Below are positions 17,354-56,289 of a stretch of DNA of 64,000 bases, piece after piece. Position 1 is the first letter of the stretch. Each line of letters opens with the position of its first letter. This DNA comes from a virus (lineage: Duplodnaviria > Heunggongvirae > Uroviricota > Caudoviricetes). The stretch lies in the IMG/VR virus record IMGVR_UViG_3300027601_000004. One strand, given 5' to 3'. A program made the translations under genes and the position numbers. Under the pieces are notes generated by a model that had not been told where the DNA came from, did no database searches, and saw only the letters and a list, made by a program, of their open reading frames with translations.

Positions 17354-17363
17354 GGAAATTATT

Positions 17364-18880: not shown

Positions 18881-19530
18881 GATCAATGACTCGAACAGAT
18901 ATATTCACCTATCCTATTTGGCAGTGGAAAGATCTGCCAATAGATAATGAAAAAATATCTAGCCATGCTTATACACTAAGAAGTAAAGATCCTGAGCATA
19001 GAAACCCAGAGGGACATAGTAAATATTCTTTAAAGTGGAAGAGTTATAATTTAACTAAAAAAGACTTTTTAGCATTCCCAGAAACTAAAAAGTTAATTGG
19101 TTTAATTTTTGAAAATGCAAAGACTTGTTTTAATGAGTTAAATCCAAGACCAACAGTTAATTTGGTTTTGGATTCTTGTTGGTTCAATATATATCCTCCA
19201 GGATCTAATCTAGAAAGCCATCCACATCCAGGGAATGTATTAGCTGGATCATACTACCCTAAAGTACCTTTAGAATCTGGCGATCTGGTTTATTTGCATC
19301 CAGATATTAGTACATATTTTAATTATGCAGCCAAATATTTCCATAACAGAAATAATATAACTGCAGTTAAACATTACGTTACACCAGTTGAAGGTGCGTT
19401 AGTTTTAGCACCTGCAAATATTATGCATGCCGTAAGAGAAAATAAATCTGAAGGTGATAGGATTTCTTTTTCGTTTAATTTTGGGGTTGTTGATGTAGAT
19501 ACCTATACACCCAATGATAGGTATTTTTGA
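18877..19530 (+). CDS. 2OG-Fe(II) oxygenase superfamily protein.
   Basis: HPHPG motif and a distal H typical of cyanophage-type 2OG-Fe(II) oxygenases. Confidence 0.65.
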   Translation: MRSMTRTDIFTYPIWQWKDLPIDNEKISSHAYTLRSKDPEHRNPEGHSKYSLKWKSYNLTKKDFLAFPETKKLIGLIFENAKTCFNELNPRPTVNLVLDSCWFNIYPPGSNLESHPHPGNVLAGSYYPKVPLESGDLVYLHPDISTYFNYAAKYFHNRNNITAVKHYVTPVEGALVLAPANIMHAVRENKSEGDRISFSFNFGVVDVDTYTPNDRYF

Positions 19531-22040: not shown

Positions 22041-22265
22041 ATGTTATCAGCATTAAACACATCTATCGATACTGTATCAGGTATCAAAACTCAATTCGTT
22101 AAGACTTTCGTTCAAAACGAAGAAGTAGCAAAATCCCTCCAAACTTACATCGATGCTCAGCAATCATTTGCTAAGACTGTCGCTAAATCAACTGTAGATT
22201 TTTTCACTACAGTAGGTACAGCAGCAACTTCATTTGATGCTAAGAAAGTATTCGGAACTAAGTAA
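22041..22265 (+). CDS. Hypothetical 74-aa protein.
   Basis: ORF with an AAAAGGAG RBS. Confidence 0.45.
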   Translation: MLSALNTSIDTVSGIKTQFVKTFVQNEEVAKSLQTYIDAQQSFAKTVAKSTVDFFTTVGTAATSFDAKKVFGTK

Positions 22266-22274
22266 GGAGAACAT

Positions 22275-22752
22275 TATGAATCGTCAATTTATCCCAAACT
22301 TGTGGAATGATAAAGAACTAGAAAAATTCTTTATTGGATTTGATAAGACTCTTTCTCAATATAAAGAGATGCATGATCAGATCACCAAAAATATTCCTAA
22401 CTATCCTCCATACAACATTCGTAAGAACAGTGAGAACTCATATACAATCGAATTGGCTGTAGCTGGTTTCTCTAAGCAAGACATCGATATCGAGATTGAT
22501 GGTGGCAAGTTAGTAATCAAAGGTAATGTTAATAGCGTATCTGATGATGAAAACTTTGTATTTAAGGGTATTGCTAATCGTGCGTTCACTCGTTGGTTTG
22601 CTCTTGAAGATAATGTAGAAGTTAAAGACGCAGAACTTTTTAATGGTATGTTGAAGATTGCTTTAGAGCGTCTAACACCTGAAGAAAGTAAACCAAAGAA
22701 AGTTGCTATTAAGTCTAAAGGTGAGAAACAATTATTGAATGAGGAGAAATAA
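22275..22752 (+). CDS. hsp20: Small heat shock protein (Hsp20 / alpha-crystallin family).
   Basis: Alpha-crystallin domain pattern (IELAVAGF..DI.IE......I.G) and an AAGGAG RBS. Confidence 0.85.
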
Positions 22753-28680: not shown

Positions 28681-28984
28681 AATCAAAATATTAAACGTAC
28701 CAATATTTCATTCGCACGACTATGCCATCGGTGGTAAGATGGTAGTGGGTAAAGCAGAGATGGATGAATCGTTTTCAACTCTATTACAAGATGGTGATGA
28801 AACAGCAATCATGCAGGTGAAAGAAAAACTAACTCGAGATATGATAAAACATATGCTCGAGAATAGACTGGTTGAGTTTACTTACTACGATGATCCAATT
28901 ACAATGAGACGATGCTTAACTGTAAGAGCATATCTTGCACCCAATGATCAAGTTAAAATTTTAAGATTAGCAAACAAAATATGA
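28670..28984 (+). CDS. Hypothetical protein upstream of the polymerase; start uncertain.
   Basis: The ORF overlaps the exonuclease end; several in-frame Met candidates. Confidence 0.3.
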   Translation: MVNKIKILNVPIFHSHDYAIGGKMVVGKAEMDESFSTLLQDGDETAIMQVKEKLTRDMIKHMLENRLVEFTYYDDPITMRRCLTVRAYLAPNDQVKILRLANKI

Positions 28985-31470
28985 TTTTTTATACGCACGT
29001 ATTTCCCTTTGGTAACAAAATGTGTGTCAGAGGTTATGAAAACGGCAGAGCGTTTCAACGTAAGATCGACTTTTACCCAACACTTTATGTAACATCAAAT
29101 AAAGCAGAGAGCCAGTGGCGCACACTCGATGGTCAAGTTATCGATGAAGTTAAACCTGGAACTGTAAAAGAAACACGTGAGTTCTTTGATCGTTACAAAG
29201 AAGTGCAGGGTTTCAACGTCTACGGAAACACTAACTATGTTCACCAATATATCAGCGACACTTATGAGAGTGATGTTCGTTGGGATATGGAACAAATTAA
29301 AGTGTTCACCATCGACATTGAAACTGCAGTTGAAGATGGATTCCCTGATGTCAAACAGGCGAATGAAGAGATCTTACTAATCACAATCAAAGACTTTCAA
29401 TCTAAGAGTATTATCACTTTCGGCACACGTGAGTTTGAAAATACTCGCAAGGATGTTACTTACTTCCGTTGCAAAGACGAGCAACAACTTCTCAAAGAGT
29501 TTATGATTTTCTGGCAACAGAATTATCCTGATGTTCTAACTGGATGGAACATTGGATTCTTTGACGTACCATATTTGACTAAACGTATTCAGCGTGAACT
29601 TGGCGAAGCAATCGCAGCCAAACTTTCACCATGGGGATATATCAATGAACGAAAGATCTTTGTTAAAGGTAACGAAGAAATTTCATTTGACATCCATGGT
29701 GTAAGCCAACTTGACTATCTTGACTTGTATAAGAAGTTCACTTATCAAAAGCAAGAGTCCTATCGTCTAGATTATATCGCAGGTGAAGAACTTGGTGATG
29801 CCAAGAAAGAAAACCCTGGAGATACATTTAAAGACTTCTATACAAATTACTGGCAAGACTTCGTTGAGTATAACATTCACGACGTAGAGTTGGTTGACAA
29901 ACTTGAAGATAAGATGCGACTGATTGAGTTGTGTCTTACCATGGCATACAATGCAAAGATTAACTATGAAGATGTATTCTCTCAGGTAAGAATGTGGGAC
30001 GCCATCATCTATAATCACCTGCGTAAGAAACATATCGCCATTCCTACCAAGGTTGGTTCCAGTAAGAATGAAGCATTTGAAGGTGCTTTCGTTAAAGACC
30101 CATTGCTGGGTATGCATAAGTGGGTTGCTTCTTTTGACTTGAACAGTCTATATCCTCACTTGATTATGCAGTATAACATCTCACCAGAAACATTGAGTGG
30201 TGAGAAGATCTCATGCAACGTTGAACGTCTGCTCAATCAAGAAGTTGATACTGAATATTGTAAGCGTAGGGATCTTGCGTTGACTGCCAATGGCTGGACT
30301 TACCGCAGAGATATCAAAGGGTTCATGCCTGAGTTGATGGAGAAGATGTATTCAGACCGCAGTAAGTTCAAGAAGCAGATGCTGAAAGTTGAACAGGAAT
30401 ATCAGAACGACAAGTCCAAGAAAGAACTACTGAAAGAGATTAGTCGACTGAACAACCTGCAGATGGCAATGAAGATTGCTCTCAACTCTGCTTATGGTGC
30501 GATGGGTAATCAGTATTTCCGTTACTTTGATATTCGCATGGCAGAAGGTATTACTACCAGTGGTCAACTATCGATTCGTTGGATGGCAAATGAGTTTAAT
30601 CGTTATCTCAACAAGGTCATGAAGACAGAAGGTAAAGACTTTGTTATCGCCATTGACACAGATTCAATCTATCTAACATTGGAAGAACTGATCGAGAAAG
30701 TTTGCGAAGGTAAAACTGACGACCAGAAAATTAAATATATGGATAAGGTTTGCGAAGAGATCTTCCAACCATTCATTGACCAAACGTATCAAAAGTTGGG
30801 TGAGTATATGAACGCATACTCTCAGAAGATGATTATGAAACGTGAGGTTCTTGCCGATAAGGGTATCTGGACTGCCAAGAAAAGATACATATTGAACGTA
30901 CACAATTCTGAAGGAGTGCAGTATGCTAAACCGAAACTCAAAGTTATGGGGCTTGAAATGGTCAAGTCAAGTACACCTGCTGTTATTCGTGACAAACTTA
31001 AAGATTCGATCGAAGTTATTCTCAAGGGCAGTCAAGCGGACTTACACTCGTATATCGAAAAGTTCCGTGAAGAATTCAACCAAATGCCAGTAGAGGATAT
31101 TGCTTTCCCACGTGGCGTAAATGGTTTGAGAACATATGCTGGTTCTCCGATCTATACCAAGGGAACACCTATCCATGTAAGGGGTTCACTACTTTACAAT
31201 CATTATGTCAAGAAACTTGGACTTGAAAAGAAGTATCAGTTGATTAAAGAGGGTGAGAAGGTTAAGTTTGTATATGTGAGAAAACCAAATCCATTCCAGG
31301 AAGACGTTATCGCATTCCCGCAAAATCTACCGAAAGAGTTTGGTTTGCATGACTTTATTGATTATGAAACACAGTTTGAAAAGACATTCCTCGATGCAAT
31401 GCAAACTGTAATCCAGCCGATTGGTTGGAATGTTGAAGCCAAGTCATCATTGGAGGATTTCTTTGGATAA
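28981..31470 (+). CDS. 43: Family B DNA polymerase gp43, with N-terminal 3'-5' exonuclease domain.
   Basis: Exo I FTIDIET; NSLYPHLIMQYNISPET aligns with T4 TSLYPSIIRQVNISPET; KIALNSAYGAMG and IDTDSIY polymerase motifs. No intron or intein interruption is visible. Confidence 0.96.
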   Translation: MIFYTHVFPFGNKMCVRGYENGRAFQRKIDFYPTLYVTSNKAESQWRTLDGQVIDEVKPGTVKETREFFDRYKEVQGFNVYGNTNYVHQYISDTYESDVRWDMEQIKVFTIDIETAVEDGFPDVKQANEEILLITIKDFQSKSIITFGTREFENTRKDVTYFRCKDEQQLLKEFMIFWQQNYPDVLTGWNIGFFDVPYLTKRIQRELGEAIAAKLSPWGYINERKIFVKGNEEISFDIHGVSQLDYLDLYKKFTYQKQESYRLDYIAGEELGDAKKENPGDTFKDFYTNYWQDFVEYNIHDVELVDKLEDKMRLIELCLTMAYNAKINYEDVFSQVRMWDAIIYNHLRKKHIAIPTKVGSSKNEAFEGAFVKDPLLGMHKWVASFDLNSLYPHLIMQYNISPETLSGEKISCNVERLLNQEVDTEYCKRRDLALTANGWTYRRDIKGFMPELMEKMYSDRSKFKKQMLKVEQEYQNDKSKKELLKEISRLNNLQMAMKIALNSAYGAMGNQYFRYFDIRMAEGITTSGQLSIRWMANEFNRYLNKVMKTEGKDFVIAIDTDSIYLTLEELIEKVCEGKTDDQKIKYMDKVCEEIFQPFIDQTYQKLGEYMNAYSQKMIMKREVLADKGIWTAKKRYILNVHNSEGVQYAKPKLKVMGLEMVKSSTPAVIRDKLKDSIEVILKGSQADLHSYIEKFREEFNQMPVEDIAFPRGVNGLRTYAGSPIYTKGTPIHVRGSLLYNHYVKKLGLEKKYQLIKEGEKVKFVYVRKPNPFQEDVIAFPQNLPKEFGLHDFIDYETQFEKTFLDAMQTVIQPIGWNVEAKSSLEDFFG

Positions 31471-31478
31471 TATTAAAG

Positions 31479-32017
31479 TGATTAAAACAGGAATCAACGT
31501 ATCAAAGATTCTTGCTCAATTAAAACTTTACAAAGATGATTGGAACTCTGAAGGTCAGATGAAAGGTGCTTCAACAGTCCAGAAAGAATTTGACTTCCCA
31601 CAAATTAATGCAGGTGTTTTGCAATTAGTTATTGGTGGTGTTGAGAATGAAACGCAATATGTTGGTGACACTGAGTATTGCATTAAAACACCTGCGTATA
31701 ACAGACACACAGAAATTGTTAGATTTATGAAACGAAACTTCCACGACCATTCACGTTGTGGATTCTTGTCATTGCCAGTTGGTGGTTCTGTCGGCAAACA
31801 TATAGACATCGGTAGTTATTATCAGACCAGAGATCGTTACCATCTCTCCATCGCAGGTAGATACAAATATATGGTTGGAGATGAGGAATACATAGTAGAG
31901 CCAGGAACTTTGTTGTGGTTCAATAATAAATTGCAACATGGAACTGAAAATGTTGGCAATGAAGTTCGTGTAACCTTTGTATTCGATGTGCCACATCACA
32001 AATCTAACCCAAAATAA
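31479..32017 (+). CDS. Cupin / 2OG-Fe(II)-like oxygenase superfamily protein.
   Basis: HxD...H arrangement in a DSBH-like C-terminal half. GTG start chosen just after the pol stop; an alternative ATG lies at about 31559. Confidence 0.45.
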
Positions 32018-32069: not shown

Positions 32070-33137
32070 ATGAGTATACTAGATAAAATTCGCAAGAATA
32101 GTACGATTAAAGATTCTGCTATTCTATCACAATCAAAGTTCTTCACAAAGAAGGATATGATTCCTACCACTGTCCCAGCAATCAATATTGCATTGTCTGG
32201 TCGTCTTGATGGTGGTTTGACTCCAGGTATCACAATGTGGGCTGGACCAAGTAAACACTTCAAGACAGCATTCAGTTTGCTAATGGCTAAGTCTTATATG
32301 GACAAGTACCCCGATGCTGCGTTGCTTTTCTACGACTCAGAGTTCGGCACACCTCAAGCATACTTTGATTCTTTCGGTATTGATACCGAGCGTGTTATCC
32401 ATACACCACTTACTGACGTAGAGCAGTTGAAGTTTGACATCATGCAACAGCTACAAGGAGTTGAACGTGGCGACCATCTTATTATTGTTATTGATTCTAT
32501 TGGTAATCTTGCGTCTAAGAAGGAAGTAGAAGATGCACTTGATGGCAAATCTGTTGCTGATATGAGTCGTGCCAAACAGATGAAGTCATTGTTCCGTATG
32601 ATTACACCACACCTGAACCTTAAAGATATTCCATTGGTTGTTGTTAATCATACATATATGGAGATCGGTATGTTCCCCAAACCTATTGTCGGTGGTGGAA
32701 CTGGTGCCATGTACTCTGCCGATAATGTATACATTCTTGGTCGTCAACAAGAAAAAGAAGGGACTGAAGTTGTTGGATATAATTTTATTATCAATGTGGA
32801 GAAATCTCGTTATGTGCGTGAAAAATCTAAGATTCCTGTTACTGTATATCATGATGGGGGTATTAGCCGTTGGTCTGGCTTACTTGATATCGCACTCGAG
32901 TCTGGGCATGTTGTCAAGCCAAGTAATGGTTGGTATAGTAAAGTAGATGCAGATGGTGTTATTGAAGATAAGAAGTATCGCCTGAAAGATACAGATACTA
33001 AAGACTTCTGGATGCCAGTACTTATGCAAAAGTCTTTCATTGAGTTTGTTAAAAACAAATATCAGGTAGGTTCAACAGATATCCTTAAAGATGAAGATAT
33101 CGATGCAGAACTTGCTGCGATTGATGATGAAGAATAA
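32070..33137 (+). CDS. uvsX: UvsX (RecA-like) recombinase.
   Basis: Nearly co-linear with T4 UvsX: MWAGPSKHFKT, FYDSEFG, VIDSIGNLASKKE, KQMKSLFRMITP, VNHTY. Confidence 0.96.
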   Translation: MSILDKIRKNSTIKDSAILSQSKFFTKKDMIPTTVPAINIALSGRLDGGLTPGITMWAGPSKHFKTAFSLLMAKSYMDKYPDAALLFYDSEFGTPQAYFDSFGIDTERVIHTPLTDVEQLKFDIMQQLQGVERGDHLIIVIDSIGNLASKKEVEDALDGKSVADMSRAKQMKSLFRMITPHLNLKDIPLVVVNHTYMEIGMFPKPIVGGGTGAMYSADNVYILGRQQEKEGTEVVGYNFIINVEKSRYVREKSKIPVTVYHDGGISRWSGLLDIALESGHVVKPSNGWYSKVDADGVIEDKKYRLKDTDTKDFWMPVLMQKSFIEFVKNKYQVGSTDILKDEDIDAELAAIDDEE

Positions 33138-33138
33138 T

Positions 33139-33465
33139 ATGCGCAATTATGTTACTGTGCAAAATCGCAGTAATGGACATGATGCGATAAAGTTGACAGA
33201 TGGTGCATATGAAGGTATAATTTATTCTTATGGTAAAGTTGGTTTCGAAGAAGATGAAGCCAACGATTCCTTGAAGATTAGTTTTGAATATGAGATTCTT
33301 GACTACAACGATAAGGTTATCACTGACATGAAACCCTTTGAGAAATACATAGGTGATATCCTTCAAGATCTTATTCATGAAGGTATTGCGAATAATAATT
33401 TAACGTACACAGGTGGTGTTGATGAGAATAGAACAGGCGATCCTATCGAACCTGATTCACAATGA
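33139..33465 (+). CDS. Hypothetical acidic protein (108 aa).
   Basis: ATG 2 nt after the uvsX stop. Confidence 0.4.
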   Translation: MRNYVTVQNRSNGHDAIKLTDGAYEGIIYSYGKVGFEEDEANDSLKISFEYEILDYNDKVITDMKPFEKYIGDILQDLIHEGIANNNLTYTGGVDENRTGDPIEPDSQ

Positions 33466-34819
33466 GGAGTTCTGTCGTAAGGCAGTTCCTCATTTAAAGA
33501 CTGAGTATTTTGCAGATCGTAAAGAAAGTGCTATCGCTAAAATCTTAGTTGAGTTTTTTGAGCAGTATAATAAGCCAGCATCACCTGAGATTCTGGCTAT
33601 TGAGATTGGCAATATCAAAGGGCTAACTGACAAAGAAGTTCCTGAGTTCCAAGAATATGCCAAACAGTTGACTAATAAAGAACCTAATGAAGAATGGTTG
33701 ATTGGTCAGACTGAAAAGTTTTGTAAAGACAGGGCAGTTTATAATGCGATTCTTAAATCAATTCAAATTATCGATGGTAGGGACAAAGTGCATCAACAAG
33801 ATGCGATACCTACTATTCTTAGTGAAGCACTTGGTGTTTGCTTTGATAATCATGTTGGTCATGATTACATTCAGGATGCTAATGATAGGTATGATTTTTA
33901 TCACAGGGTGGAAGAGAAAATTGCTTTCGATCTTGAGATGTTCAACAAAATCACCAAAGGTGGACTCAGTAAGAAAACTTTGAACATTGCTTTGGCAGGA
34001 ACAGGTGTTGGTAAATCGTTGTTTATGTGTCACGTTGGAGCCAGTGTTCTTATGCAGGGTAAAAATGTTTTATACATAACAATGGAGATGGCTGAAGAAC
34101 GTATCGCTGAACGTATCGATGCAAACTTACTTAACCTAACCATGGATGAATTGAAAGTTGTTGATCGGGATATCTTTGATTCACGTCTACAGAAGATTGC
34201 TACAAAAACACAGGGAACACTGATTGTCAAAGAGTATCCAACTGCAGGTGCTCATGCTGGTCACTTCCGTGCTTTGTTGGAAGAGTTAAAACTTAAGAGA
34301 GAGTTTGCTCCAGATATTATCTTTATTGACTATCTGAATATCTGTGCTTCATCTAGAATGAAACAAACCCATGGTGTAAACTCTTATACATATATTAAGG
34401 CTATCGCTGAAGAACTAAGGGGACTGGCAGTTGAATACAACGTACCTATTGTTAGTGCAACTCAAACAACTCGATCTGGATTTACAAACTCAGACCCAGG
34501 ACTTGAGGACACTTCAGAATCTTTTGGACTCCCTGCGACAGCTGATTTCATGTTCGCACTTGTGAGTAATGAAGAACTTGAGCAGTTGAATCAGATTATC
34601 GTTAAGCAGTTGAAGAATCGTTACAACGACCCAAATTTCTACAAGAGGTTTGTCGTTGGTATCGATAGATCTAAAATGAAGTTATATGATGTTGAAGTTT
34701 CTGCGCAAGCAGGGCTATCAGATGTTGGAACTAAAGAAAAAGACGAACCATTGTTTGATAAATCAGATTTTGGTAAACGACTACATAGTGAGAACGAGTT
34801 TAGTGGATTTAAGTTTTAG
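33422..34819 (+). CDS. 41: Replicative DnaB-like helicase gp41.
   Basis: Walker A GTGVGKS; YITMEMAEERIAERIDANLL aligns with T4 gp41 YISMEMAEEVCAKRIDANML; FIDYLNIC; AGGTGG RBS. Confidence 0.95.
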   Translation: MRIEQAILSNLIHNEEFCRKAVPHLKTEYFADRKESAIAKILVEFFEQYNKPASPEILAIEIGNIKGLTDKEVPEFQEYAKQLTNKEPNEEWLIGQTEKFCKDRAVYNAILKSIQIIDGRDKVHQQDAIPTILSEALGVCFDNHVGHDYIQDANDRYDFYHRVEEKIAFDLEMFNKITKGGLSKKTLNIALAGTGVGKSLFMCHVGASVLMQGKNVLYITMEMAEERIAERIDANLLNLTMDELKVVDRDIFDSRLQKIATKTQGTLIVKEYPTAGAHAGHFRALLEELKLKREFAPDIIFIDYLNICASSRMKQTHGVNSYTYIKAIAEELRGLAVEYNVPIVSATQTTRSGFTNSDPGLEDTSESFGLPATADFMFALVSNEELEQLNQIIVKQLKNRYNDPNFYKRFVVGIDRSKMKLYDVEVSAQAGLSDVGTKEKDEPLFDKSDFGKRLHSENEFSGFKF

Positions 34820-34828
34820 GAGAGAGAA

Positions 34829-36130
34829 ATGACAGTTAAAGTTATTGTCGCTGATAAAAAGATTGATTGTAAACATTTGATTGGTCAATTCGTTGACGAG
34901 AATCATTACGACCATCTTATCGAAGAAGATACTGATGTTTATATGCCAGCACCTTATGGTGAAGATCCTATCAATGAAGACAGGATTGTATTGAAGTTCC
35001 GTAAGAACTTCTTCACCAAAGAACAACAAGACCAAGCGTATGCAGGTCTTCGTGAAGCTGCAACTGAAACACAGAATCGTGGCGCAGCAGCAGGTCCACG
35101 TGGTGAGAAGTTGGGTAATCGTGAATGGGTTACTGAGTATGAATCTGAGATGGTTGAATACTTCCTTGACCCATACTCTGGTCTTGCAGGAGATCCTGTA
35201 GAAGATATTATCAAACGCTATAAGGGTAAACCACCTACTCCATCTAATCGCAATAATGTTTGGTCGATTGAAAGAACTAAGTCAACCAATTTTAATTTCG
35301 ATCAGTGGGTTGAGAAAGTGCGTACACTTCCACGACAAGAACAAATTAAAGAAGCAAACTTTGTTGCTGATGAATTGATTTGTGCAACCACTTACGCTAA
35401 CTCAGTTTATTCTGGCATCGCAGGTTGGTTCGATCGTTATCCTCGCATTCCTTATGGTCGTGCAACATCTTACACTGCCAAGAATCCTGAGAAGTTTGCA
35501 CTTGCTTACCCATTCCTACAAACATTGTCAAATGGTTTTAGGGATCTACTACCACAGCGTTATGAAGCACAGATGAAAGCAGCGAGACAAGTTGATCCTC
35601 GTTTCCTAGTTCCTGGAACTCCATTCACAACTGTTACTGTGAATAAAACATTCAGAACTGCTGCTCACTATGACGTTGGCGATTTAAATAGTGGTCTTTC
35701 AAATCTACTAACTTTGTCAAATGATGGACGTTACAGTGGTGGTTATTTGATTGCACCTGAGTATCGTGTTGCTGTTAATCCACGTCCAGGCGACTTGCTA
35801 TTGATTAACAACCATGATGTTATGCATGGCAACACTCCTATCGTTTGTGAAGAAGGTTCTGAGCGTATCAGTTTGGTTTGCTACTTCCGTGAGAAGATGC
35901 TTGAGTTGGGTTCTTGGGAATATGAGAACTGTCGTTATGACTTCGTTGAACAACGTCGCAAGAATCCTGAACATCCGATGCAACGTAAACTTTGGAATGG
36001 TGTTTCCGAAGGTATGTGGACTTCTGACGAGTGGTACGACTATTGTCGTGAAAAACTTGGAGATGAAATCCTAATTAAATATCATCCAGAATCAATGAAG
36101 TCTGGATCACTTGATGAATTTTTTGCGTAA
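34829..36130 (+). CDS. 2OG-Fe(II) dioxygenase; TET/JBP-like candidate for nucleic-acid base oxidation.
   Basis: HYD (HxD), then HGNT about 57 aa later, then RISLV (RxS) 10 aa after that: a classic DSBH facial triad plus 2OG-binding Arg. Confidence 0.55.
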   Translation: MTVKVIVADKKIDCKHLIGQFVDENHYDHLIEEDTDVYMPAPYGEDPINEDRIVLKFRKNFFTKEQQDQAYAGLREAATETQNRGAAAGPRGEKLGNREWVTEYESEMVEYFLDPYSGLAGDPVEDIIKRYKGKPPTPSNRNNVWSIERTKSTNFNFDQWVEKVRTLPRQEQIKEANFVADELICATTYANSVYSGIAGWFDRYPRIPYGRATSYTAKNPEKFALAYPFLQTLSNGFRDLLPQRYEAQMKAARQVDPRFLVPGTPFTTVTVNKTFRTAAHYDVGDLNSGLSNLLTLSNDGRYSGGYLIAPEYRVAVNPRPGDLLLINNHDVMHGNTPIVCEEGSERISLVCYFREKMLELGSWEYENCRYDFVEQRRKNPEHPMQRKLWNGVSEGMWTSDEWYDYCREKLGDEILIKYHPESMKSGSLDEFFA

Positions 36131-36138
36131 GGTTTATT

Positions 36139-37146
36139 ATGTCACTACATGAGTTTCTAGGTGAAGAAAGGTTGTTAGAGTGGTTCTATTCAAAGAACTC
36201 TAGCAATACTGGAACTAAAATTGGTTATCGCAGAGTTTCTGGTAAGATTGGTTTGACCAACAAAGAGAATGGTGTTCGTGGAGCATGGGTAGAGAAACGT
36301 GTTGCTCTGTTCAAGAACATGCTTGATTTTGGTCATCGAATCATTCCACTATCAGAAGCAACTGATGCAACCAAAGATGATGGGTTTGAAACATTTGACA
36401 CATATCAAGATTGTGATGTTCTCATGCTTGAGTTTGGTGGAACTAATTTGCAGTTCTATCAGAAGTACTGGGATAAAACTGTTGAGATGATTAAAGCACA
36501 TAAGGGTCGCATCATCTTTTTGAATGACGATCCAGATCTTCCATTCCTTTGGGAGTTGTTACCTGATGAAGATTGGTCACGTTGGACTATTGCAGCCAAT
36601 GCGACTGAGTGTAATGAAGTTGCAACTATCCTGAAGTGTCCTATCGGAACTACAACTGTTGATTTACCCATGGCATCTGGTATGGAGTTTGCTGAATTTC
36701 ATCCAGGTAATATTGAGAAGGTGGTTTACATTGGTAGACCAAATGGCAGAACCAAATACTTCAAAGAGTTTACTTCTTCACGTTGTCTTCAAGTTGCAGG
36801 TAAAGAAGCTGAATGGGATGATTTTGAAGCACTTGAGATTCTACCAAACCCACAGCAAAGAGATCGTAGAAAGTTCTATCAACAGTTCTATGGCTGTCTA
36901 GCTGTCTATGACGATAAACATAAGAAGTCTGGTTGGAGAACTGGTCGTGCATATCATGCTCTTTATGCAGGTATTCCTGTCTGCGCACCGAAAGGTAACA
37001 ATGGTTTGAATTGGTGTTTCCCTACAGATACCAAAATGGAGTTGGATAAGTTTGCGTCATTCCCAGAGGAAGTCCGTAGAAATATCTGGGAAAAGCAGAA
37101 AGCTGTTGTAGAAAAGACTGGAAAGGTTGATCCATTAATCCTATGA
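36139..37146 (+). CDS. Putative glycosyltransferase or other group transferase (GT-B-like C-terminal half).
   Basis: C-terminal WRTGRAYHALYAGIPVCAP resembles the GT-B donor-binding helix; sits immediately next to the dioxygenase. Confidence 0.35.
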   Translation: MSLHEFLGEERLLEWFYSKNSSNTGTKIGYRRVSGKIGLTNKENGVRGAWVEKRVALFKNMLDFGHRIIPLSEATDATKDDGFETFDTYQDCDVLMLEFGGTNLQFYQKYWDKTVEMIKAHKGRIIFLNDDPDLPFLWELLPDEDWSRWTIAANATECNEVATILKCPIGTTTVDLPMASGMEFAEFHPGNIEKVVYIGRPNGRTKYFKEFTSSRCLQVAGKEAEWDDFEALEILPNPQQRDRRKFYQQFYGCLAVYDDKHKKSGWRTGRAYHALYAGIPVCAPKGNNGLNWCFPTDTKMELDKFASFPEEVRRNIWEKQKAVVEKTGKVDPLIL

Positions 37147-37595
37147 TAGTTTCTTATGACATCGATGGGGTTCTGGCTGCTCAGCCACCGCCATCCGAAA
37201 TGAAGTGGGGTAAAATGAATGGGGTTCAAAGAAAGGCTAGGAAGGACTTTTTGTACGATTGGTACGAGAATGCCGAGAAACTTATAGAGCCAGTTGAGAC
37301 CCAATTTTACGCCATTTCTGCAAGAAAACGAGAGCCAAGAATACATACAATCACAAAAGACTGGCTGAATAAATATTATGGTGGAAGAGTAATTTCCTTC
37401 CATCTTCTAGATAATACCAGAACTGTTGAAAATGTAGTCCGATTTAAGTCCGAAAGGGTGCTTGAATTGGGTATACAACGACATTATGAAGACAACAAAA
37501 AAGTACTGAGAGGGATGCGCAAACTGTTACCCCAAACTGTTGAGTTGTATTTTTGGGAAAGGGGTATGCAGGAGCCAGTTCCTTTTATCAAATAG
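37143..37595 (+). CDS. HAD-superfamily 5'(3')-deoxyribonucleotidase-like (NT5C-type) protein.
   Basis: N-terminal YDIDGVLA matches HAD motif I as it appears in NT5C enzymes. Confidence 0.45.
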   Translation: MIVSYDIDGVLAAQPPPSEMKWGKMNGVQRKARKDFLYDWYENAEKLIEPVETQFYAISARKREPRIHTITKDWLNKYYGGRVISFHLLDNTRTVENVVRFKSERVLELGIQRHYEDNKKVLRGMRKLLPQTVELYFWERGMQEPVPFIK

Positions 37596-37603
37596 GGCTG
37601 AAT

Positions 37604-38320
37604 ATGAAGTTCCTGGAAAATTATAACTCCGACTGGATGGACATGCTCAATTTTTATGAGCGTCCATTTAGGGCTAAACTTGTTCCAGCAAAAGTCCTCA
37701 AGGATCTAGACAAGTATAGAAACGATTCAAAAGGTTTAGCCAACTATCTTAAAAAGTGGCGAACTAAAGTTGTATGGAGAGAAGAGAAGTCTAAGGCTAG
37801 TTGGACTGAGAAGTATGTTTGTATTGGTGGTGAGTATGATCCAGAAAATAGACAGTCACTTTTAATAATACATACAACCAAATTTGATACATTTAATTTC
37901 AATGACCAAGTTTGGGAAAAGTTTAAGTTTCGTTTATTGCAAACTTTGATGCATGAGATAATTCACTTCATGCAATATGATAGACGTGATGATACATGGA
38001 GCAATTATGTTGTTCCTTATAAGAAAGTTGGTATAGCCAAAAAAGACGCAGAAAGAAAGTACCTTTCTGAGTTCGATGAGATACAAGCATATGCTCATTG
38101 TGTATACCTAGACTTCAAAGTACTAAGACCAAACGTAGATATTAATACGCTACTAAATCGCTGCAAGAAATCTCGCGATTCAAAAACCCTCCACTATTTC
38201 CTCAAGACATTCGACTACGACTTCCGAAACAATGAATCTCCAAGAAAGATCATTTACCAGATCGGTAAGTGGGATCGCAAATACGAGAAAGTTATTCGTA
38301 GACAGCGCAGACCTAAATAG
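37604..38320 (+). CDS. HExxH zinc-metallopeptidase-like protein (ImmA/IrrE- or SprT-like).
   Basis: LMHEIIHFMQYD with a downstream EFDEIQAY provides a possible third zinc ligand. Confidence 0.4.
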   Translation: MKFLENYNSDWMDMLNFYERPFRAKLVPAKVLKDLDKYRNDSKGLANYLKKWRTKVVWREEKSKASWTEKYVCIGGEYDPENRQSLLIIHTTKFDTFNFNDQVWEKFKFRLLQTLMHEIIHFMQYDRRDDTWSNYVVPYKKVGIAKKDAERKYLSEFDEIQAYAHCVYLDFKVLRPNVDINTLLNRCKKSRDSKTLHYFLKTFDYDFRNNESPRKIIYQIGKWDRKYEKVIRRQRRPK

Positions 38321-38337
38321 TACAATAATTATTGTAC
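38320..38337 (+). promoter_or_regulatory. Perfect 18-bp palindrome GTACAATAATTATTGTAC; candidate operator.
   Basis: Half-site TACAATAAT equals the conserved -35 block of the repeated early promoters. Confidence 0.4.
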
Positions 38338-38346
38338 GGGGTTCCC

Positions 38347-39150
38347 ATGGCACAAAAAGGTTTCGATTACGAGAGAAACGCACATAACGTATTGAAAGAA
38401 TACAAAATCACTGTAGGTGATCCAGCTGGCGCATCGCACGATAAACCAGATCTTTCTATCGTCACTAAAAGTATATCAACATCAACAGGATGTGAGTTAA
38501 AGATATCCCCAACTGCAGCAGGATCTCTAGTATTAAAATACTACAACGGTAAGTGGGCATTCGCTGAAGACCTTAAAGGCGATCCTGAGAAAATCATGAT
38601 GCGAGATATCGCAACTCAATACAACCTTCTCCAAGAAATGAATGTATCGGGTACTGCTGGTGAGAAGTGGAGAAGTAAAGTTCCTATTCTACAGAATGAC
38701 CAAGCTGGTAGAAAAATACTTACTGGTGGTATTAAAGACAAACGCAAAGCGTATGAAATTGATATACAAAGTTATAAGGGTGAGAACGAGGTCCACATAA
38801 CAGTCCCAGCTAAGGCTATCTGTGACTACTACAATAAGAAGAAAACCTACTACATCAATGTAGGTACTCATGGGTTCTATTTAATGAATAAATTCGATCC
38901 GTTAAAATTGAATGCCAAGCTAACCAAGAAGATCGAAGATTTCTCAAACTGCACATCAGCTAGAATCAGAACTAGATGCCAGCCAAAGGGTGGTGGCGAT
39001 TACCAGTTCGTTATGACTTTAGAATTTTCAAACCTAAGAAAATCTCTCTATAACCTAGCACCCATTACATCCCAAAATAACGTCACTATTAATAGAACAG
39101 CTTACAGCTTAACTGACAATCAGTCTCTACTTAAAGCATTCGCTTCATAG
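38347..39150 (+). CDS. Hypothetical protein (267 aa).
   Basis: ORF; ATG with a GGGG RBS after the palindrome. Confidence 0.45.
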   Translation: MAQKGFDYERNAHNVLKEYKITVGDPAGASHDKPDLSIVTKSISTSTGCELKISPTAAGSLVLKYYNGKWAFAEDLKGDPEKIMMRDIATQYNLLQEMNVSGTAGEKWRSKVPILQNDQAGRKILTGGIKDKRKAYEIDIQSYKGENEVHITVPAKAICDYYNKKKTYYINVGTHGFYLMNKFDPLKLNAKLTKKIEDFSNCTSARIRTRCQPKGGGDYQFVMTLEFSNLRKSLYNLAPITSQNNVTINRTAYSLTDNQSLLKAFAS

Positions 39151-39270: not shown

Positions 39271-40473
39271 ATGGGTAAAATGAAGTCGTTCCAAACATTC
39301 CTTAAAGAAGAAACCGAAGAAGAGAAACTGAAGCACATCCATCATGTAGAGGATCGCCCTCTATTCCATGGTTCTTCAGGGTTCGAACATGCTCTTGGTG
39401 CACTAAACCATGGACATGAACACATTAAAGCTGGGAAACAATCCAGCGATCTGACCATGAAATATGACGGATCGCCATCATTGGTTTTTGGAAAGCATCC
39501 AGAAACTGGAAAATTCTTTGTTGCTTCCAAGTCAGCGTTCAATAAAAACCCAAAAATCAACTATACTGCTAAGGACATTGACAAGAACCATGGTCATGCT
39601 CCAGGTCTCGCAGAAAAATTAAAGCATGCTCTAAAACATCTACCAAAGGTTGCACCTAAGCAAGGTGTATATCAGGGTGACGTTATGCACTCTGAGGGTG
39701 ATGTTAAATATGATGAGAAGAAGGGAACTGCTTCTTATACACCAAATACAATTAAGTATACTGCGCATGGCGATGAAGCCAAGAAAACAGCCCAATCTAA
39801 ATTTGGGTTAGTTGTTCACCAAAAATATGAGGGTAAAGATTTTGCTTCGATGAAAGCAACTCCTCATCCTGATATGAAAAGTTTTGGTCAACACAAAGAT
39901 GTGCATCTTGCTGGTGCCGAGCATGATACTAGCAAAGTTAAATATACTCAAGCAGATCAGAAAAGATTCCAAAGCCACATGAATGCTGCAAAAGATATTC
40001 ATGATAAACACGGCGATAAGATGTATGGTGCGATCCATCCAGAACACAAAGGTGATGCTGGACATTTGGGAACTTACATCAATCAAACAGTTCGCAAAGA
40101 TACAAAACCAAACGCAAAAGGATTCATTAAACATATTCAGGATGTTTATGAAAAGAAAGCGTCTAAACTAAAGTCTGAGAAGGGACAAACTGCTCAGCGT
40201 AATCTTGGTTCTGGTCACGCTGCGCATGTTGAGAAAAATAAAGAGCATTATGAGAATCTATTTAAAATGCATCAGCATTTACAGCAAGGTAAAAACCTTT
40301 TAGTTAAGAATTTAAACCAGCATACTGGCGGTCTTGAGCATCATATTGGAGATAAGAAAACAGATCCTGAGGGATATGTTATAAATTATACGCACAAAGG
40401 TAAACAAGAACCATCTAAAATTGTTAATCGTGCAGAATTCAGTAAAGCCAACTTATTAAAGCCAAGAAAATGA
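39271..40473 (+). CDS. His/Lys-rich paralog 1, with a degenerate nucleotidyltransferase-like motif. The second ATG at 39280 (MKSFQTF) is probably the true start.
   Basis: The N-terminus MKSFQTFLKEE is shared with the next two genes; KYDGSPSL block; 17% His+Lys; low complexity. Confidence 0.6.
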   Translation: MGKMKSFQTFLKEETEEEKLKHIHHVEDRPLFHGSSGFEHALGALNHGHEHIKAGKQSSDLTMKYDGSPSLVFGKHPETGKFFVASKSAFNKNPKINYTAKDIDKNHGHAPGLAEKLKHALKHLPKVAPKQGVYQGDVMHSEGDVKYDEKKGTASYTPNTIKYTAHGDEAKKTAQSKFGLVVHQKYEGKDFASMKATPHPDMKSFGQHKDVHLAGAEHDTSKVKYTQADQKRFQSHMNAAKDIHDKHGDKMYGAIHPEHKGDAGHLGTYINQTVRKDTKPNAKGFIKHIQDVYEKKASKLKSEKGQTAQRNLGSGHAAHVEKNKEHYENLFKMHQHLQQGKNLLVKNLNQHTGGLEHHIGDKKTDPEGYVINYTHKGKQEPSKIVNRAEFSKANLLKPRK

Positions 40474-41084
40474 AGACATTTAAATCTTATATTGTAGAAT
40501 CAGAAAAAGACGTTCATCATGTTCTTGCTTTTGGTCGAATGAATCCTCCAACTGCTGGTCATGAGAAACTCGTAACCCATATGCATGATACTGCCAAGAA
40601 ACATAATGCAGAACATACATTGGTATTATCAGGTTCGCATGCAACTAAAGACGGATCTAATCCATTACCACCTGATGTTAAAAAGAAACATGCAGAGAGA
40701 GCATTTCCTGGAACCAATGTTAAGGTAGCTGATAAAGAACATCCTACTGTTCTTCATCATGCTGCTGAGTTGCACAAAAAAGGTGTTACTCATTTACACT
40801 TTGCTGGTGGCGATGATCGTAAACCAATGCATGAATTGATTAAAAAGTATAATGGAAAAGAAGGTCCACATGGACATTACAATTTCAAGAGTATAAAGTT
40901 CCACAATGCAGGTAAACGTGATCCAAATGCAAAAGGAACTGAAGGTATTTCTGGAACTAAACTTCGTGGTCACGCTGCAGCTGGTGAACAGAAAAAGTTT
41001 GAATCTCATCTATCGTCACAGATGAAACCAGAACATAAAACAGAATTGTATCACGACTTACGTAAACATATGGGTGTAAAGTAA
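40470..41084 (+). CDS. His/Lys-rich paralog 2; HIGH-signature nucleotidyltransferase-like (cytidylyl-/adenylyltransferase superfamily).
   Basis: VLAFGRMNPPTAGHEKLV is a (T/H)xGH motif preceded by FGR.NP; a C-terminal ISGTKLRG resembles the ISxTxxR motif of NMNAT/PPAT-type enzymes. Confidence 0.55.
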   Translation: MKTFKSYIVESEKDVHHVLAFGRMNPPTAGHEKLVTHMHDTAKKHNAEHTLVLSGSHATKDGSNPLPPDVKKKHAERAFPGTNVKVADKEHPTVLHHAAELHKKGVTHLHFAGGDDRKPMHELIKKYNGKEGPHGHYNFKSIKFHNAGKRDPNAKGTEGISGTKLRGHAAAGEQKKFESHLSSQMKPEHKTELYHDLRKHMGVK

Positions 41085-42130
41085 TGAAAAATTTTAAATC
41101 GTTCTTAGCAGAAGAACAATACTACGAAGAATTGCTTATCGAAGCAGCTGATGATGCTTCCAAAGAGGGTGGTGTTTCCAATAACACTAAAGGTGTGTTG
41201 CACGAACTATTAGTCGGCAAACATTTAAATGGTGGTAAGCATCTAGAGAAACACAAGAATGAAAACGATGAAACACCTGAGCAAGCACACGAGAGATTAA
41301 AGAAACAAATTCACCCTAAAGATTATGATAAGATCGCTAAAAATGCAGAGAGTGCTGCCAATCATATTAAGGCACATATCGATTCTACTCACAAAGGGCA
41401 TAAGATTTCAGCAGTGCATTGGACTTCAAAACCTGGAGATACAGAAAAGGTAACTGGTCACAAAGCAACACAGAAAGAAGATTCTTCTGACGTTTATGTA
41501 ACTACCAAGCATCCAAAGACAGGTAAAGAACATCATCATGGCGTAAGTTTAAAAGTCAGCGATAAGTCCAGTAAAAACATTCCGTCTTCAAGTCTTGGTA
41601 TGGAATCTGGTGGTTCAAAAGCCAGACAGCATTATAAAGATCATCAAGACGCAATACTTGCTGCTCATCCTAAATTAAAAGGTAAGAATAAAGACCAGCG
41701 TAAAGAAATTGCAAAAGCAGATCCTAAGTTGCATGATGATATTAAGAAACGCAACAAAGAACTTTTACATAAAGTTGCTCACGATCATGCTGCTGAGTTG
41801 CAGCACCACTTAGACAACAATAACCACGACCATGTAGTTAAACATATTCGTGAAGTTCTACATGCACATAAGACTCCTGCAGAAGAAAAGGGGCACAGTT
41901 TTATTAAGCATACAACATATCAAACTGCTAAGGGTGTTCAACACCATACAAGTAAGCCAAGCGAAGACCACGAACATATCCTTAAAGACCATAAGAATAT
42001 TACAGTTAAATCCAGTGGTGGCTCTGTTCACTTCTATCACAATGGTAAGAAGTTTGCTTCTCAAGCCCATAAGTTCGACTCTCAATCTGATCCATTAAGT
42101 TCATTAAAGAGTGCAGGTAAAGCTGTATGA
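41084..42130 (+). CDS. His/Lys-rich paralog 3; degenerate motif (NNTKGVLHELLV).
   Basis: N-terminus MKNFKSFLAEE; very His-rich (HHHG, HDHAAELQHHLDNNNHDHVVKH). Confidence 0.55.
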   Translation: MKNFKSFLAEEQYYEELLIEAADDASKEGGVSNNTKGVLHELLVGKHLNGGKHLEKHKNENDETPEQAHERLKKQIHPKDYDKIAKNAESAANHIKAHIDSTHKGHKISAVHWTSKPGDTEKVTGHKATQKEDSSDVYVTTKHPKTGKEHHHGVSLKVSDKSSKNIPSSSLGMESGGSKARQHYKDHQDAILAAHPKLKGKNKDQRKEIAKADPKLHDDIKKRNKELLHKVAHDHAAELQHHLDNNNHDHVVKHIREVLHAHKTPAEEKGHSFIKHTTYQTAKGVQHHTSKPSEDHEHILKDHKNITVKSSGGSVHFYHNGKKFASQAHKFDSQSDPLSSLKSAGKAV

Positions 42131-45295: not shown

Positions 45296-45742
45296 ATGAA
45301 TGAAACTTTAGTTACTGCGAAAATTTGCTTAGCAAATACATTCTTAATGTATTTTAAGGCACAATCTTATCATTGGAACTTGGAAGGGATGTTCTTTCCA
45401 CAGTATCATGAATTTTTTGGCAATCTTTATGAAGAAATTTATGGAGCAGTTGATCCAATGGCAGAAGAGATGCGTGCGCTTGATGAGTATGCTCCAAAGA
45501 ATATAGAAGAAATGTATAAAGTTACAACTATCGATAATGATAATAACGCTAGTAATGTAACTGAAATGCTGCAAGATTTACAAGAAGCCAACAATAAAAC
45601 CATCGAGAGCCTAAATAAACTGTTCGATCTATTATCGAAAGACAAAGAGCAGGGTTTTGCTGATTTTATTGCTGGAAGATTGGATGCTCACAAGAAACAT
45701 GGTTGGATGATACGTTCCAGCTTAAAGAAAATTGGAGAATAA
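45296..45742 (+). CDS. dps: Dps / ferritin-like protein.
   Basis: FLMYFKAQSYHWNLEGMFFPQYHEFFGNLYEEIYGAVDPMAEEMRAL carries the Dps ferroxidase-site spacing (HW..G..F..H.......E....D...E); the C-terminal HKKHGWMIRS is typical. Confidence 0.65.
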   Translation: MNETLVTAKICLANTFLMYFKAQSYHWNLEGMFFPQYHEFFGNLYEEIYGAVDPMAEEMRALDEYAPKNIEEMYKVTTIDNDNNASNVTEMLQDLQEANNKTIESLNKLFDLLSKDKEQGFADFIAGRLDAHKKHGWMIRSSLKKIGE

Positions 45743-50718: not shown

Positions 50719-51750
50719 ATGTTATACATTGATGTTAAGTTTGCAAGTATTCTTGGATCACGTCTAAGAAATTTCAAACAGAAAAAAGATTACCTTTGGA
50801 ATTATTCCTGTCCAGTCTGTGGTGATAGTACCACAAACAAACTTAAAGCACGTGGATACATCTATCGTGCAAAATCAGATTTATTCTGTAAGTGTCACAA
50901 CTGCGGATATGGAACCAATCTCGGCAACTTAATCAAGTATGTCGATACAAAACTTTATGATGAGTATGTCTTGGAACGCTACAAAGGTGGTGCTACAAGA
51001 TATAATGACCACAAAGACATTGCTGATACCAGTGTCGTCTTAGAAACTCCACAAGAAGATTTACTTGAGGATGATATCCTCGAGAGTCTTACACGCATCG
51101 ATAAATTACCAGATGGTCATCCAGTTCTTCAATATATAAACAACCGACAGATACCAAAGGATAAACGGAACTTACTCTACTTTGCTCCAAAATTTAAAGC
51201 ATATACCAATACCGTTACGCCAAAATTTCAAGAGCCAATAGTAGATGAGCACCCAAGACTTATCATTCCTTACTTCACTGCTGCTGGTAAATGTTTTGCA
51301 TATCAAGCCAGAGCATTTGGTAAAGAAGAGCCTAAGTATTATACAATTAAAGTAGATGAAACGCAGGAGAAAATTTATGGACTCGATCGCTTGGATTATA
51401 GCAAACGCATATATGTTGTTGAAGGACCAATTGATTCGCTATTCTTACCAAATGCAATCGCTGTGTCAGGAGCAAGTTTTGATACCCCTACTATTCGGCA
51501 GCTACTTACTAACGCAACGATTGTAATGGATAATGAGCCACGTAATAAAGACATAGTGAAACAACTTGACAAATATATTAGTTTAGGCTATAATGTTTGT
51601 ATGTTCCCCGACACCGTAATGCAAAAAGATATCAATGAAATGATTTTAGATGGTAAAATGACTACTGACGAAATTGTTCAATTGATAAATACGAATACCT
51701 TTTCAGGTGTTGAAGCAAAATTAAAATTTAGTACATGGAGAAAGATTTGA
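50719..51750 (+). CDS. 61: DNA primase gp61 (zinc-binding domain plus TOPRIM).
   Basis: CPVCGDS...CKCHNCG zinc ribbon at the N-terminus; TOPRIM-like YVVEGPIDS; position next to the replication genes. Confidence 0.85.
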   Translation: MLYIDVKFASILGSRLRNFKQKKDYLWNYSCPVCGDSTTNKLKARGYIYRAKSDLFCKCHNCGYGTNLGNLIKYVDTKLYDEYVLERYKGGATRYNDHKDIADTSVVLETPQEDLLEDDILESLTRIDKLPDGHPVLQYINNRQIPKDKRNLLYFAPKFKAYTNTVTPKFQEPIVDEHPRLIIPYFTAAGKCFAYQARAFGKEEPKYYTIKVDETQEKIYGLDRLDYSKRIYVVEGPIDSLFLPNAIAVSGASFDTPTIRQLLTNATIVMDNEPRNKDIVKQLDKYISLGYNVCMFPDTVMQKDINEMILDGKMTTDEIVQLINTNTFSGVEAKLKFSTWRKI

Positions 51751-52430
51751 AAGTTAAATTAATAAATTATTCGCAGGGAACACCTGAAGTTATTGAAGAA
51801 GGTCTAGATAATGTTCAAGATTTAATTGCTTACTGTGCCAGAGTTTCAAACCCCAGTAATCAATACAACACAGATACAGCAGAAAAGTTGATTCGATATC
51901 TAATTAAAAATAAACACTGGTCACCACTAGAGATGGTGAGTGCATGTTTAGAAATTGAAACTACACGTGATATCGCAAGACAAATTTTACGCCATCGCTC
52001 TTTTTCCTTCCAGGAGTTTAGTCAACGATATGCTGACCCCACAAAAGAACTTGACTTTGTACTTCGTGAAGCACGACTTCAAGATACAAAGAACAGACAA
52101 AACTCAGTTGAAGTTAAAGGACTAACACTAACTGAACAAAATCTAATAGATCAGTGGAGATGGAAGCAAGAAGAAGTTATTTCTGCTGCGAACCATGCAT
52201 ATGATTGGGCTATCAAAAATGGGATCGCCAAAGAGCAAGCAAGAGCAGTTTTACCAGAAGGTTTAACTGTCTCACGTTTATACATGAATGGCACTTTGCG
52301 TAGTTGGGTTCATTTTATTGAACTGCGTAGCGCAAATGGTACACAGAAAGAACACATGTTAGTTGCACGTGAGTGTGCGAAAGTAATAGCAAGTATCTTC
52401 CCAATGGTGGAAGAATTCGTAAACAAATAA
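51735..52430 (+). CDS. thyX: Flavin-dependent thymidylate synthase ThyX.
   Basis: ThyX signature RHRSFSFQEFSQRY. Confidence 0.9.
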   Translation: MEKDLKVKLINYSQGTPEVIEEGLDNVQDLIAYCARVSNPSNQYNTDTAEKLIRYLIKNKHWSPLEMVSACLEIETTRDIARQILRHRSFSFQEFSQRYADPTKELDFVLREARLQDTKNRQNSVEVKGLTLTEQNLIDQWRWKQEEVISAANHAYDWAIKNGIAKEQARAVLPEGLTVSRLYMNGTLRSWVHFIELRSANGTQKEHMLVARECAKVIASIFPMVEEFVNK

Positions 52431-56150: not shown

Positions 56151-56289
56151 ATATTTTGAATGTGAATCATGTGGAGCACGAGGAAAGATCGTTCTCAAAG
56201 GAGATGACCATTCAACAGAAGATGTGGTATATTGCCCAGTTTGTTCTGCTGACATCTACGAAGAAGAGGATCTAGACGATGAAGAATAA
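56140..56289 (+). CDS. Small zinc-ribbon protein (49 aa; CxxC...CxxC) with an acidic tail.
   Basis: FECESCGARG ... CPVCSADIY; too short for the ORF track. Confidence 0.35.
   Translation: MSTKYFECESCGARGKIVLKGDDHSTEDVVYCPVCSADIYEEEDLDDEE

Follow-up and report, generated by a model that had tools for sequence, protein, structure and literature searches.

Phage genes for dioxygenases of the TET/JBP family (5mYOX enzymes) have been described beside glycosyltransferase genes, as have GT-B DNA glycosyltransferases whose likeness to T4 beta-glucosyltransferase (BGT) is confined to the fold, and most phage 5mYOX clusters have been inferred to be without a methyltransferase and probably to make 5-hydroxymethyluracil (5hmU) (PMC8256090; bioRxiv 10.1101/2023.12.21.572611; PMC13229309). 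The genes that co-occur with phage 5mYOX genes include those for glycosyltransferases, HAD enzymes, helicases and polymerases (PMC13229309). Here we describe a locus of this type in a 64,000-nt stretch of DNA from a virus of the Caudoviricetes (IMG/VR record IMGVR_UViG_3300027601_000004; hereafter the window), which represents 64 kb of a roughly 166-kb genome. Three adjacent plus-strand genes, A (34829-36130), B (36139-37146) and C (37143-37595), encode a 433-aa TET/JBP-family Fe(II)/2-oxoglutarate dioxygenase, a predicted 335-aa GT-B glycosyltransferase and a 150-aa capless HAD-superfamily phosphatase, and they probably form a cassette that hydroxylates thymine in phage DNA and glycosylates the product. 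An earlier sequence-only reading had proposed a DNA hypermodification module made up of a TET/JBP dioxygenase and a glycosyltransferase, and this core is supported by Pfam, by fold and by co-occurrence across lineages. Its description of the pathway as uncharacterised was too broad: since phage 5mYOX-glycosyltransferase clusters, BGT-like GT-B enzymes and thymine dioxygenases have been published (PMC8256090; bioRxiv 10.1101/2023.12.21.572611; PMC13229309), the pathway type is already known, and it is this example that is uncharacterised.

The predicted chemistry is that of the base J pathway, in which JBP1 or JBP2 hydroxylates thymine after replication and JGT places a sugar on 5hmU. The proteins differ, however. 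The fold of JGT is GT-A-like and that of B is GT-B and BGT-like; where JBP1 carries a J-DNA-binding domain, the N-terminal region of A (200 aa) is unrelated; base J synthesis has no HAD partner, whereas the triad includes C; and base J serves eukaryotic transcription control, whereas the role of the triad is probably phage anti-defence. In T4, BGT (GT63) acts together with gene 42, and 5-hydroxymethylcytosine (5hmC) is made before replication as a nucleotide, whereas here the dioxygenase would hydroxylate the polymer. Phages ViI, M6 and SP10 likewise make 5hmU before replication, using a dUMP hydroxymethylase rather than a TET/JBP enzyme.

Closer parallels are found among phage 5mYOX systems. 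Subclass III clusters (GT53, GT66 and GT94; PMC8256090; bioRxiv 10.1101/2023.12.21.572611) also place a TET/JBP gene beside a GT-B enzyme that resembles T4 BGT at fold level alone, but they have an adjacent C5-methyltransferase and modify cytosine, whereas no such gene was found here and the context points to thymine. In contig 53, a HAD-like enzyme, a cytidylyltransferase and a BGT-like GT-B are all needed to place heptose on 5hmC (bioRxiv 10.1101/2023.12.21.572611); that HAD enzyme is a HAD-APH fusion, whereas C is a stand-alone, capless protein of 150 aa that is nearest to T4 Pnkp phosphatase. Phage thymine dioxygenases of the ParB-independent clade C2 (5mYOX97) and the ParB-dependent clade C1 (5mYOX176) are, like A, TET/JBP enzymes without a neighbouring C5-methyltransferase (PMC13229309), and both they and the A family are linked to glycosyltransferases or to amino acid:DNA transferase (AADT), kinase and GATase machinery. 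The characterised thymine dioxygenases are about 290-300 aa long, whereas A has 433 aa with a conserved N-terminal extension, and neither Pfam nor phmmer with two phage ParB-like queries found a ParB gene in the window; A therefore does not have the co-located ParB that marks the ParB-dependent subclass. Lastly, the ADDT, Ploopntkinase3 and GATase families known from the 5hmU DNA kinase and amino acid:DNA transferase pathway (aGPT-Pplase; PMC8989533) are encoded behind orthologous dioxygenases in sister phages, and the cassette in the window would therefore be an alternative elaboration of the same 5hmU intermediate.

Gene A begins 9 nt after gp41 (33413-34819), directly downstream of it as the sequence-only reading had placed it, and is identified as a TET/JBP-family dioxygenase by a match to Pfam Tet_JBP (PF12851; E 3e-24, 85.5 bits, gathering cut-off 34.9) that spans residues 211-355 and profile positions 18-164 of 164. 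The facial triad proposed earlier is present as HYD (280-282), HGNT (at 333) and RISLV (at 346), although HGNT follows HYD by 53 residues and not by 57. Across 14 sequences with identities reaching down to 42%, residues H280, D282, H333 and R346 do not vary; the alignment includes Stenotrophomonas DLP_6, Caulobacter Cr30 and Kyanoviridae phage C48C1, all cultured. Consistent with this assignment, the A-family profile finds human TET2 among PDB sequences (E 1.8e-4), with the HxD (HRD in TET2) and H...R(ISLV) motifs aligned. The first ~200 residues of A are strongly conserved (motifs FRKNxF and NRGxAAGP) but have no counterpart among known domains. A search at E<=1e-3 retrieved 2848 homologs, and the family is thus large. 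Many of these carry a Cys-rich N-terminal insert (e.g. CDLATQADCD..DCSSCE; P0164, P0183, P0224, P0236, P0208 and Cr30; alignment columns 60-80) that looks like a small metal-binding loop and that A itself does not have. Homologs in DLP_6 (KU682439.2), Cr30 (KF301602.1), Synechococcus phage S-CBWM1 (MG450654.1) and Pelagibacter phage HTVC112P (MN698246.1), loci L001 and L002 among them, are labelled 'SNF2 DNA repair protein', which appears to be a propagated misannotation.

B, for which we retrieved 185 metagenomic homologs, matches no Pfam glycosyltransferase family at E<=1 and has no match in PHROGs, NCBIfam or GenBank phages (tblastn included). Searches of PDB sequences with the B-family and C-family profiles returned spurious interleukin-2 matches or none. 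The TAGT family (PF20691) does not match B either, and the window contains no TAGT homolog. An AlphaFold2 model built on 55 homologs (pLDDT 94.3, pTM 0.90) has T4 BGT as its best fold match, 5 Z units above generic GT-B enzymes. As modelled, B is a GT-B fold of two Rossmann domains whose closest solved fold is T4 BGT. The sequence-only reading had seen a likeness to GT-B donor-binding domains in the C-terminus; the fold match extends this to the whole protein. Alignment of the N-terminal domain of B with that of BGT scored 5.2 standard deviations above shuffles, with FGGxxNL and (K/R)I..L..D..LPF superposed. In this pairwise alignment the catalytic residue of BGT, Asp100, falls on the invariant D131 of B, within DDPDLPF. 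E98 had been considered as the catalytic base of B and gave way to D131 as the candidate after the alignment. By inspection, the invariant R204 and R270 are candidate UDP-phosphate-binding arginines. We conclude that B is likely a DNA glycosyltransferase acting on 5hmU, and that its homologs constitute a predicted, sequence-orphan DNA glycosyltransferase family.

The four HAD motifs of C (D6-x-D8-G-V, S59, K102 and E116-D117) are invariant among its 121 homologs, and its model is of high confidence (pLDDT 96.5); with these motifs on a Rossmannoid fold, C belongs to the HAD phosphatases and is predicted to be catalytically intact. At 150 aa the protein has no room for a cap domain; capless HAD enzymes usually go with large or polymer substrates. 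C is basic (isoelectric point 9.5), and, as modelled, it comes nearest in fold to the polynucleotide 3'-phosphatase of T4 Pnkp. Hence the YDIDGVLA motif singled out in the sequence-only reading is a genuine, invariant HAD motif I, whereas the proposed NT5C affinity falls away, since Pfam NT5C (PF06941) does not match and the fold is nearer to Pnkp phosphatase.

The organisation of the three genes is operon-like. A and B are separated by 8 nt, and B and C share an ATGA overlap through which, judging from the sequence, C is translationally coupled to B. In some close variants of this phage (L006, 12315-13430; L008; L013) a gene for a 370-aa SulP-type sulfate transporter (PF00916) lies between B and C and breaks the overlap. 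Genes A to E form one co-directional run of open reading frames straight after T4-type replication genes, and the four open reading frames proposed earlier for 34829-39150 are all present on the plus strand. Metagenomic contigs, at least 24 of them and up to 166 kb long, carry an identical gene A with unchanged gene order; the sequence therefore belongs to a real phage genome that recurs, rather than being an assembly artefact.

We compared gene neighbourhoods in IMG/VR, using 80 loci retrieved through A, 80 through B, and further loci around distant B homologs. On the B side, 87 loci collapsed into 35 clusters at 90% identity, 34 of them informative. A TET/JBP gene was present in 33 of these 34 clusters and gene C in 31. 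B was associated with four dioxygenase subtypes in two gene orders: the gp41-adjacent type of the window; a type 56% identical to A (L091/UFOVP49); a type 43% identical to A, at another genomic position in a T4-like phage (L088); and a 285-aa type that cannot be aligned to A and follows a ParB_N gene in a siphovirus-like genome (L090). In this last type the order is ParB, Tet_JBP, B, C, a 141-aa open reading frame and terminase, so that the B-C cassette adjoins a short, ParB-linked TET gene, as in the thymine dioxygenase systems. A further group of B loci has the order B, C, TET. In every context the triad genes abut or overlap. We conclude that A, B and C are a conserved triad across independent contexts, and that C is a near-obligate partner of B. 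Because of this partnership, the pool-sanitising role that had been suggested for the nucleotidase-like protein is unlikely.

The A-side loci place the triad in a wider pattern. The order polB (28981-31470 in the window), cupin-type oxygenase (31421-32017), uvsX (32070-33137), gp41 and A is kept in essentially all 80 of these loci, and B and C follow A in a minority of them. In most sister phages the interval between A and gene D, the next gene after C in the window, holds 3.4-4.7 kb of other genes, including GATase_6/7, GNAT acetyltransferases, ADDT (PF18724, 80.6 bits) and Ploopntkinase3 (PF18751); in three loci (L056, L061 and L062) it holds TAGT (PF20691, 71 bits). None of the ADDT, 5hmU kinase or GATase machinery was found in the window by phmmer. 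By nearest-neighbour identities, B-linked and AADT-linked dioxygenases are interleaved at 78-85% (for example 81% between B-linked L105 and AADT-linked L068, and 85% between L101 and L016), and the same enzyme would therefore feed both downstream chemistries. Cultured relatives fit the pattern: DLP_6 has an NTP_transferase (sugar nucleotidyltransferase) gene and a TAGT gene (39 bits) just upstream of the dioxygenase gene; Cr30 encodes ADDT (179 bits); and in C48C1 (L003, 7317-9349) the dioxygenase gene is followed by genes for a 344-aa protein without a Pfam match and a UDP-galactopyranose mutase (PF03275, 177 bits), which hints at a galactofuranose-type DNA modification. We conclude that the slot after gp41 is prone to swapping, with sugar-type and amino-acid-type cassettes exchanged behind the same dioxygenase. 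In T4, gene 42 (dCMP hydroxymethylase) and beta-gt lie between the DNA polymerase gene and uvsX/gp41 (L093, 9401-11220). With a dioxygenase gene and a BGT-like gene just after gp41, the base-modification genes of the window thus share a replication-gene neighbourhood with T4.

The sequence-only reading found no C5-methyltransferase in the window and favoured thymine as the substrate. The negative is upheld by Pfam scans of 49 window open reading frames and by a scan for PCQ/ENV/FxGxG motifs across 3020 long reading frames from the window and ~165 related loci, neither of which returned one; phmmer with T4 Dam and gp42 as queries likewise found nothing in the window. Nor does the window contain a ThyA-like hydroxymethylase. 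It encodes ThyX (51735-52430) and a ribonucleotide reductase, both found by Pfam scan, and thymine is therefore made for phage DNA. Sister phages carry ADDT and kinase genes, published machinery that elaborates 5hmU in DNA (PMC8989533; PMC13229309), and both ParB-linked and stand-alone phage 5mYOX enzymes oxidise thymine in experiments (PMC13229309). Taken together, the missing C5-methyltransferase, ThyX, the 5hmU machinery of sister phages and the published thymine-oxidising enzymes make it likely that A acts on thymine and that B takes 5hmU as its acceptor; the choice of base comes from context. A is predicted to be a post-replicative hydroxylase of the thymine C5-methyl group. T4 BGT itself can glucosylate 5hmU in single-stranded or mismatched DNA, giving base J (PMC4111573), and BGT-like GT-B enzymes beside phage 5mYOX genes glycosylate DNA (bioRxiv 10.1101/2023.12.21.572611).

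We propose the following pathway. A, a TET/JBP enzyme by family, would use Fe(II), 2-oxoglutarate and O2 to add a hydroxyl to thymine's C5-methyl group in replicated phage DNA, yielding 5hmU. B, a BGT-like enzyme by fold, would then take a sugar from a nucleotide-sugar of the host, in the simplest case UDP-glucose, and place it on the 5hmU hydroxyl, and the product would be a base-J-like glycosyl-5hmU. C, a phosphatase by class, would remove a phosphate at some step to complete the pathway. The likely benefit is that the phage DNA is shielded from restriction and from other nucleic-acid-targeting defences.

Several observations weigh against this pathway. The activities of A, B and C are predicted from family, fold and context. 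The B profile does not show detectable homology to T4 BGT (hhalign probability 6.8%); the C-terminal half of B aligns with BGT no better than shuffles (z 0.65), too poorly to map the donor-binding residues; and B is acidic (isoelectric point 5.97) whereas BGT is basic (9.05). Some ParB-less phage TET/JBP enzymes were inactive on thymine and 5-methylcytosine (5mC) in E. coli assays (PMC8256090, PMC13229309), and a methyltransferase or hydroxymethylase could lie outside the window. Two B loci (L160, 5983-9238; L147, 107-3335) have no recognisable TET/JBP gene or gene C. Moreover, a simple two-step model leaves C without an explained role. By analogy with the GT-B and HAD logic of sucrose-phosphate and trehalose-phosphate synthesis, C may remove the phosphate from a DNA-linked phosphosugar or intermediate; as in contig 53, it may handle a sugar phosphate on the donor side; or it may repair 3' ends at nicks left by host glycosylases that attack oxidised thymines. 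A bolder version of the first option is that B and C carry out a two-step reaction on the DNA polymer, in which B adds a phosphorylated sugar or uses a phosphorylated intermediate and C dephosphorylates the DNA-linked group. The resulting thymidine hypermodification would be chemically of a kind that has not been described, in an abundant aquatic T4-like lineage that swaps 5hmU cassettes after gp41, and we consider it rather improbable.

Were A instead a 5mC dioxygenase served by a methyltransferase of the host or from outside the window, B would glycosylate 5hmC, as in the methyltransferase-5mYOX-glycosyltransferase clusters. All phage 5mYOX and glycosyltransferase sugar pathways reconstituted so far do operate on 5hmC (PMC8256090; bioRxiv 10.1101/2023.12.21.572611), 5hmC is the natural substrate of BGT, the best fold match of B, and our search covered 64 kb of a genome of ~166 kb. 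We nevertheless judge cytosine modification unlikely, given that the motif and Pfam scans returned no C5-methyltransferase, that the methyltransferase adjoins the TET gene in characterised systems (PMC8256090), that orthologous dioxygenases precede AADT and 5hmU-kinase genes, whose products act on 5hmU, and that some partner TET enzymes of B are of the ParB-linked thymine dioxygenase type (PMC13229309). It is also quite unlikely that B acts on a hydroxymethylpyrimidine made before replication, as in T4, by a nucleotide-level hydroxymethylase encoded outside the window, with A serving separately, for example in a regulatory or sequence-specific role. In keeping with such a route, the B genes of L160 and L147 lie near a dNMP-kinase-like gene, together with a DUF3799 PDDEXK recombination nuclease gene, and these loci may reach the same acceptor base by a pre-replicative route; in L091 a DNMK gene lies two genes beyond C; and T4 beta-gt adjoins gene 42 in the same replication-gene neighbourhood. 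However, the window has ThyX and no ThyA-like hydroxymethylase (a phmmer search with T4 gp42 as query was negative), and the fact that TET, B and C adjoin one another almost everywhere and are translationally coupled speaks for one shared pathway. We consider it very unlikely that B and C are a small-molecule pair, akin to sucrose-phosphate or trehalose-phosphate synthase and its HAD phosphatase, that makes a compatible solute or metabolite, with A unrelated or a protein- or RNA-directed oxygenase. T4 BGT outscores such synthases by 5 Z units and shares aligned N-domain motifs with B, a TET/JBP gene accompanies B almost without exception (33/34), C lacks the cap that sugar-phosphate phosphatases have and is closest to a polynucleotide phosphatase, and sister phages fill the slot with bona fide DNA-modification genes. 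We therefore favour thymine hydroxylation followed by glycosylation as the probable function of the A-B-C cassette.

The genes that follow the triad lie outside the cassette. Gene D (37553/37604-38320, plus strand) encodes an HExxH protein of 227-255 aa depending on the start codon; gene callers place the start later on identical contigs, giving 227-238 aa. The HExxH motif, which the sequence-only reading had counted in the module, is real (H117-E118-x-x-H121 in the 238-aa form) and invariant in 53 sequences; D is possibly a zincin or SprT-like metallopeptidase, although its match to Pfam SprT-like stays below the threshold (E 0.11; 12.8 bits, cut-off 25.6). Module membership did not hold: the window's lineage keeps D in 60 loci regardless of the genes that separate it from A, which makes it a backbone gene bounding the variable slot. 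Gene E (38332-39150, plus strand; 267-272 aa) has a PD...ExK-like motif with D40, E55 and K57 invariant, occurs in only 9 related loci, has no Pfam match, and is a possible PD-(D/E)xK nuclease. D and E were both rejected as module members on co-occurrence, and genes D to H were not found in the triad contexts L088, L090 and L091. None of A to E matches NCBIfam, and in PHROGs A and E match only families of unknown function (phrog_26930 for E). When the region, or 24 kb around it, was compared with GenBank phages by megablast, nothing useful matched.

Downstream of E come three co-directional genes (39271-42130). Gene F encodes a DUF6267 protein (PF19782, 324 bits) whose KxDG motif (MKYDGSP) is ligase-like; gene G (40470-41084) encodes a cytidylyltransferase-like protein with an HxGH motif (phrog_3041/395); and the third encodes a His/Lys-rich protein of 348 aa without a family match. 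The DUF6267 and cytidylyltransferase-like genes are fused in phrog_455 and recur in many sister loci with any cassette type; PDB sequence searches with F and G gave nothing. The analogy with contig 53 suggested that G might activate the donor, an idea that was considered and rejected. Both F and G are found in AADT-type sister loci as well, and the other triad contexts do not have them; we therefore leave them out of the cassette.

The two small oxygenases noted earlier elsewhere in the window were both confirmed by Pfam: a 2OG-FeII_Oxy_5 protein (18877-19530, 65 bits) and the cupin/Asp_Arg_Hydrox-like protein encoded between polB and uvsX (29 bits), whose gene keeps this position in most sister loci. 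Another 2OG-oxygenase-like open reading frame (cluster c12) precedes the cassette in sister loci L038, L081 and L082. Probable auxiliary genes encode a CbbQ/NirQ-type AAA_5 ATPase (14679-15851), an SPFH/Band 7 protein (17340-18155), an Hsp20 protein (22234-22752), a ferritin-like protein (45296-45742, next to DUF6321) and a fatty-acid desaturase (55425-56150). Just downstream of the genes for ribonucleotide reductase and desaturase lies one for a SegE-like GIY-YIG homing endonuclease (56289-56714; PF19835, 112 bits).

Three features of this locus appear not to have been spelled out before: the B and C families, which pair near-obligately; the subfamily of 433-aa dioxygenases encoded next to gp41 in T4-like aquatic phages; and the cassette-swapping slot between A and D. 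We found no report of glycosylated 5hmU in phage DNA in the limited collection of literature searched. If confirmed, the cassette would be a natural phage route to glycosylated 5hmU, a base-J-like product known in that literature only from eukaryotes and from T4 BGT in vitro. The central prediction is directly testable, as the cultured phages DLP_6 and Cr30 carry the same dioxygenase with other cassettes, and B could possibly be used for labelling or mapping 5hmU. The conserved phosphatase partner C points to an unrecognised step. With its abundant dioxygenase family held at a fixed genomic position, this widespread aquatic T4-like lineage would offer, in the exchange of sugar-type for amino-acid-type cassettes, a clear natural example of how DNA hypermodification diversifies in modules under defence pressure.

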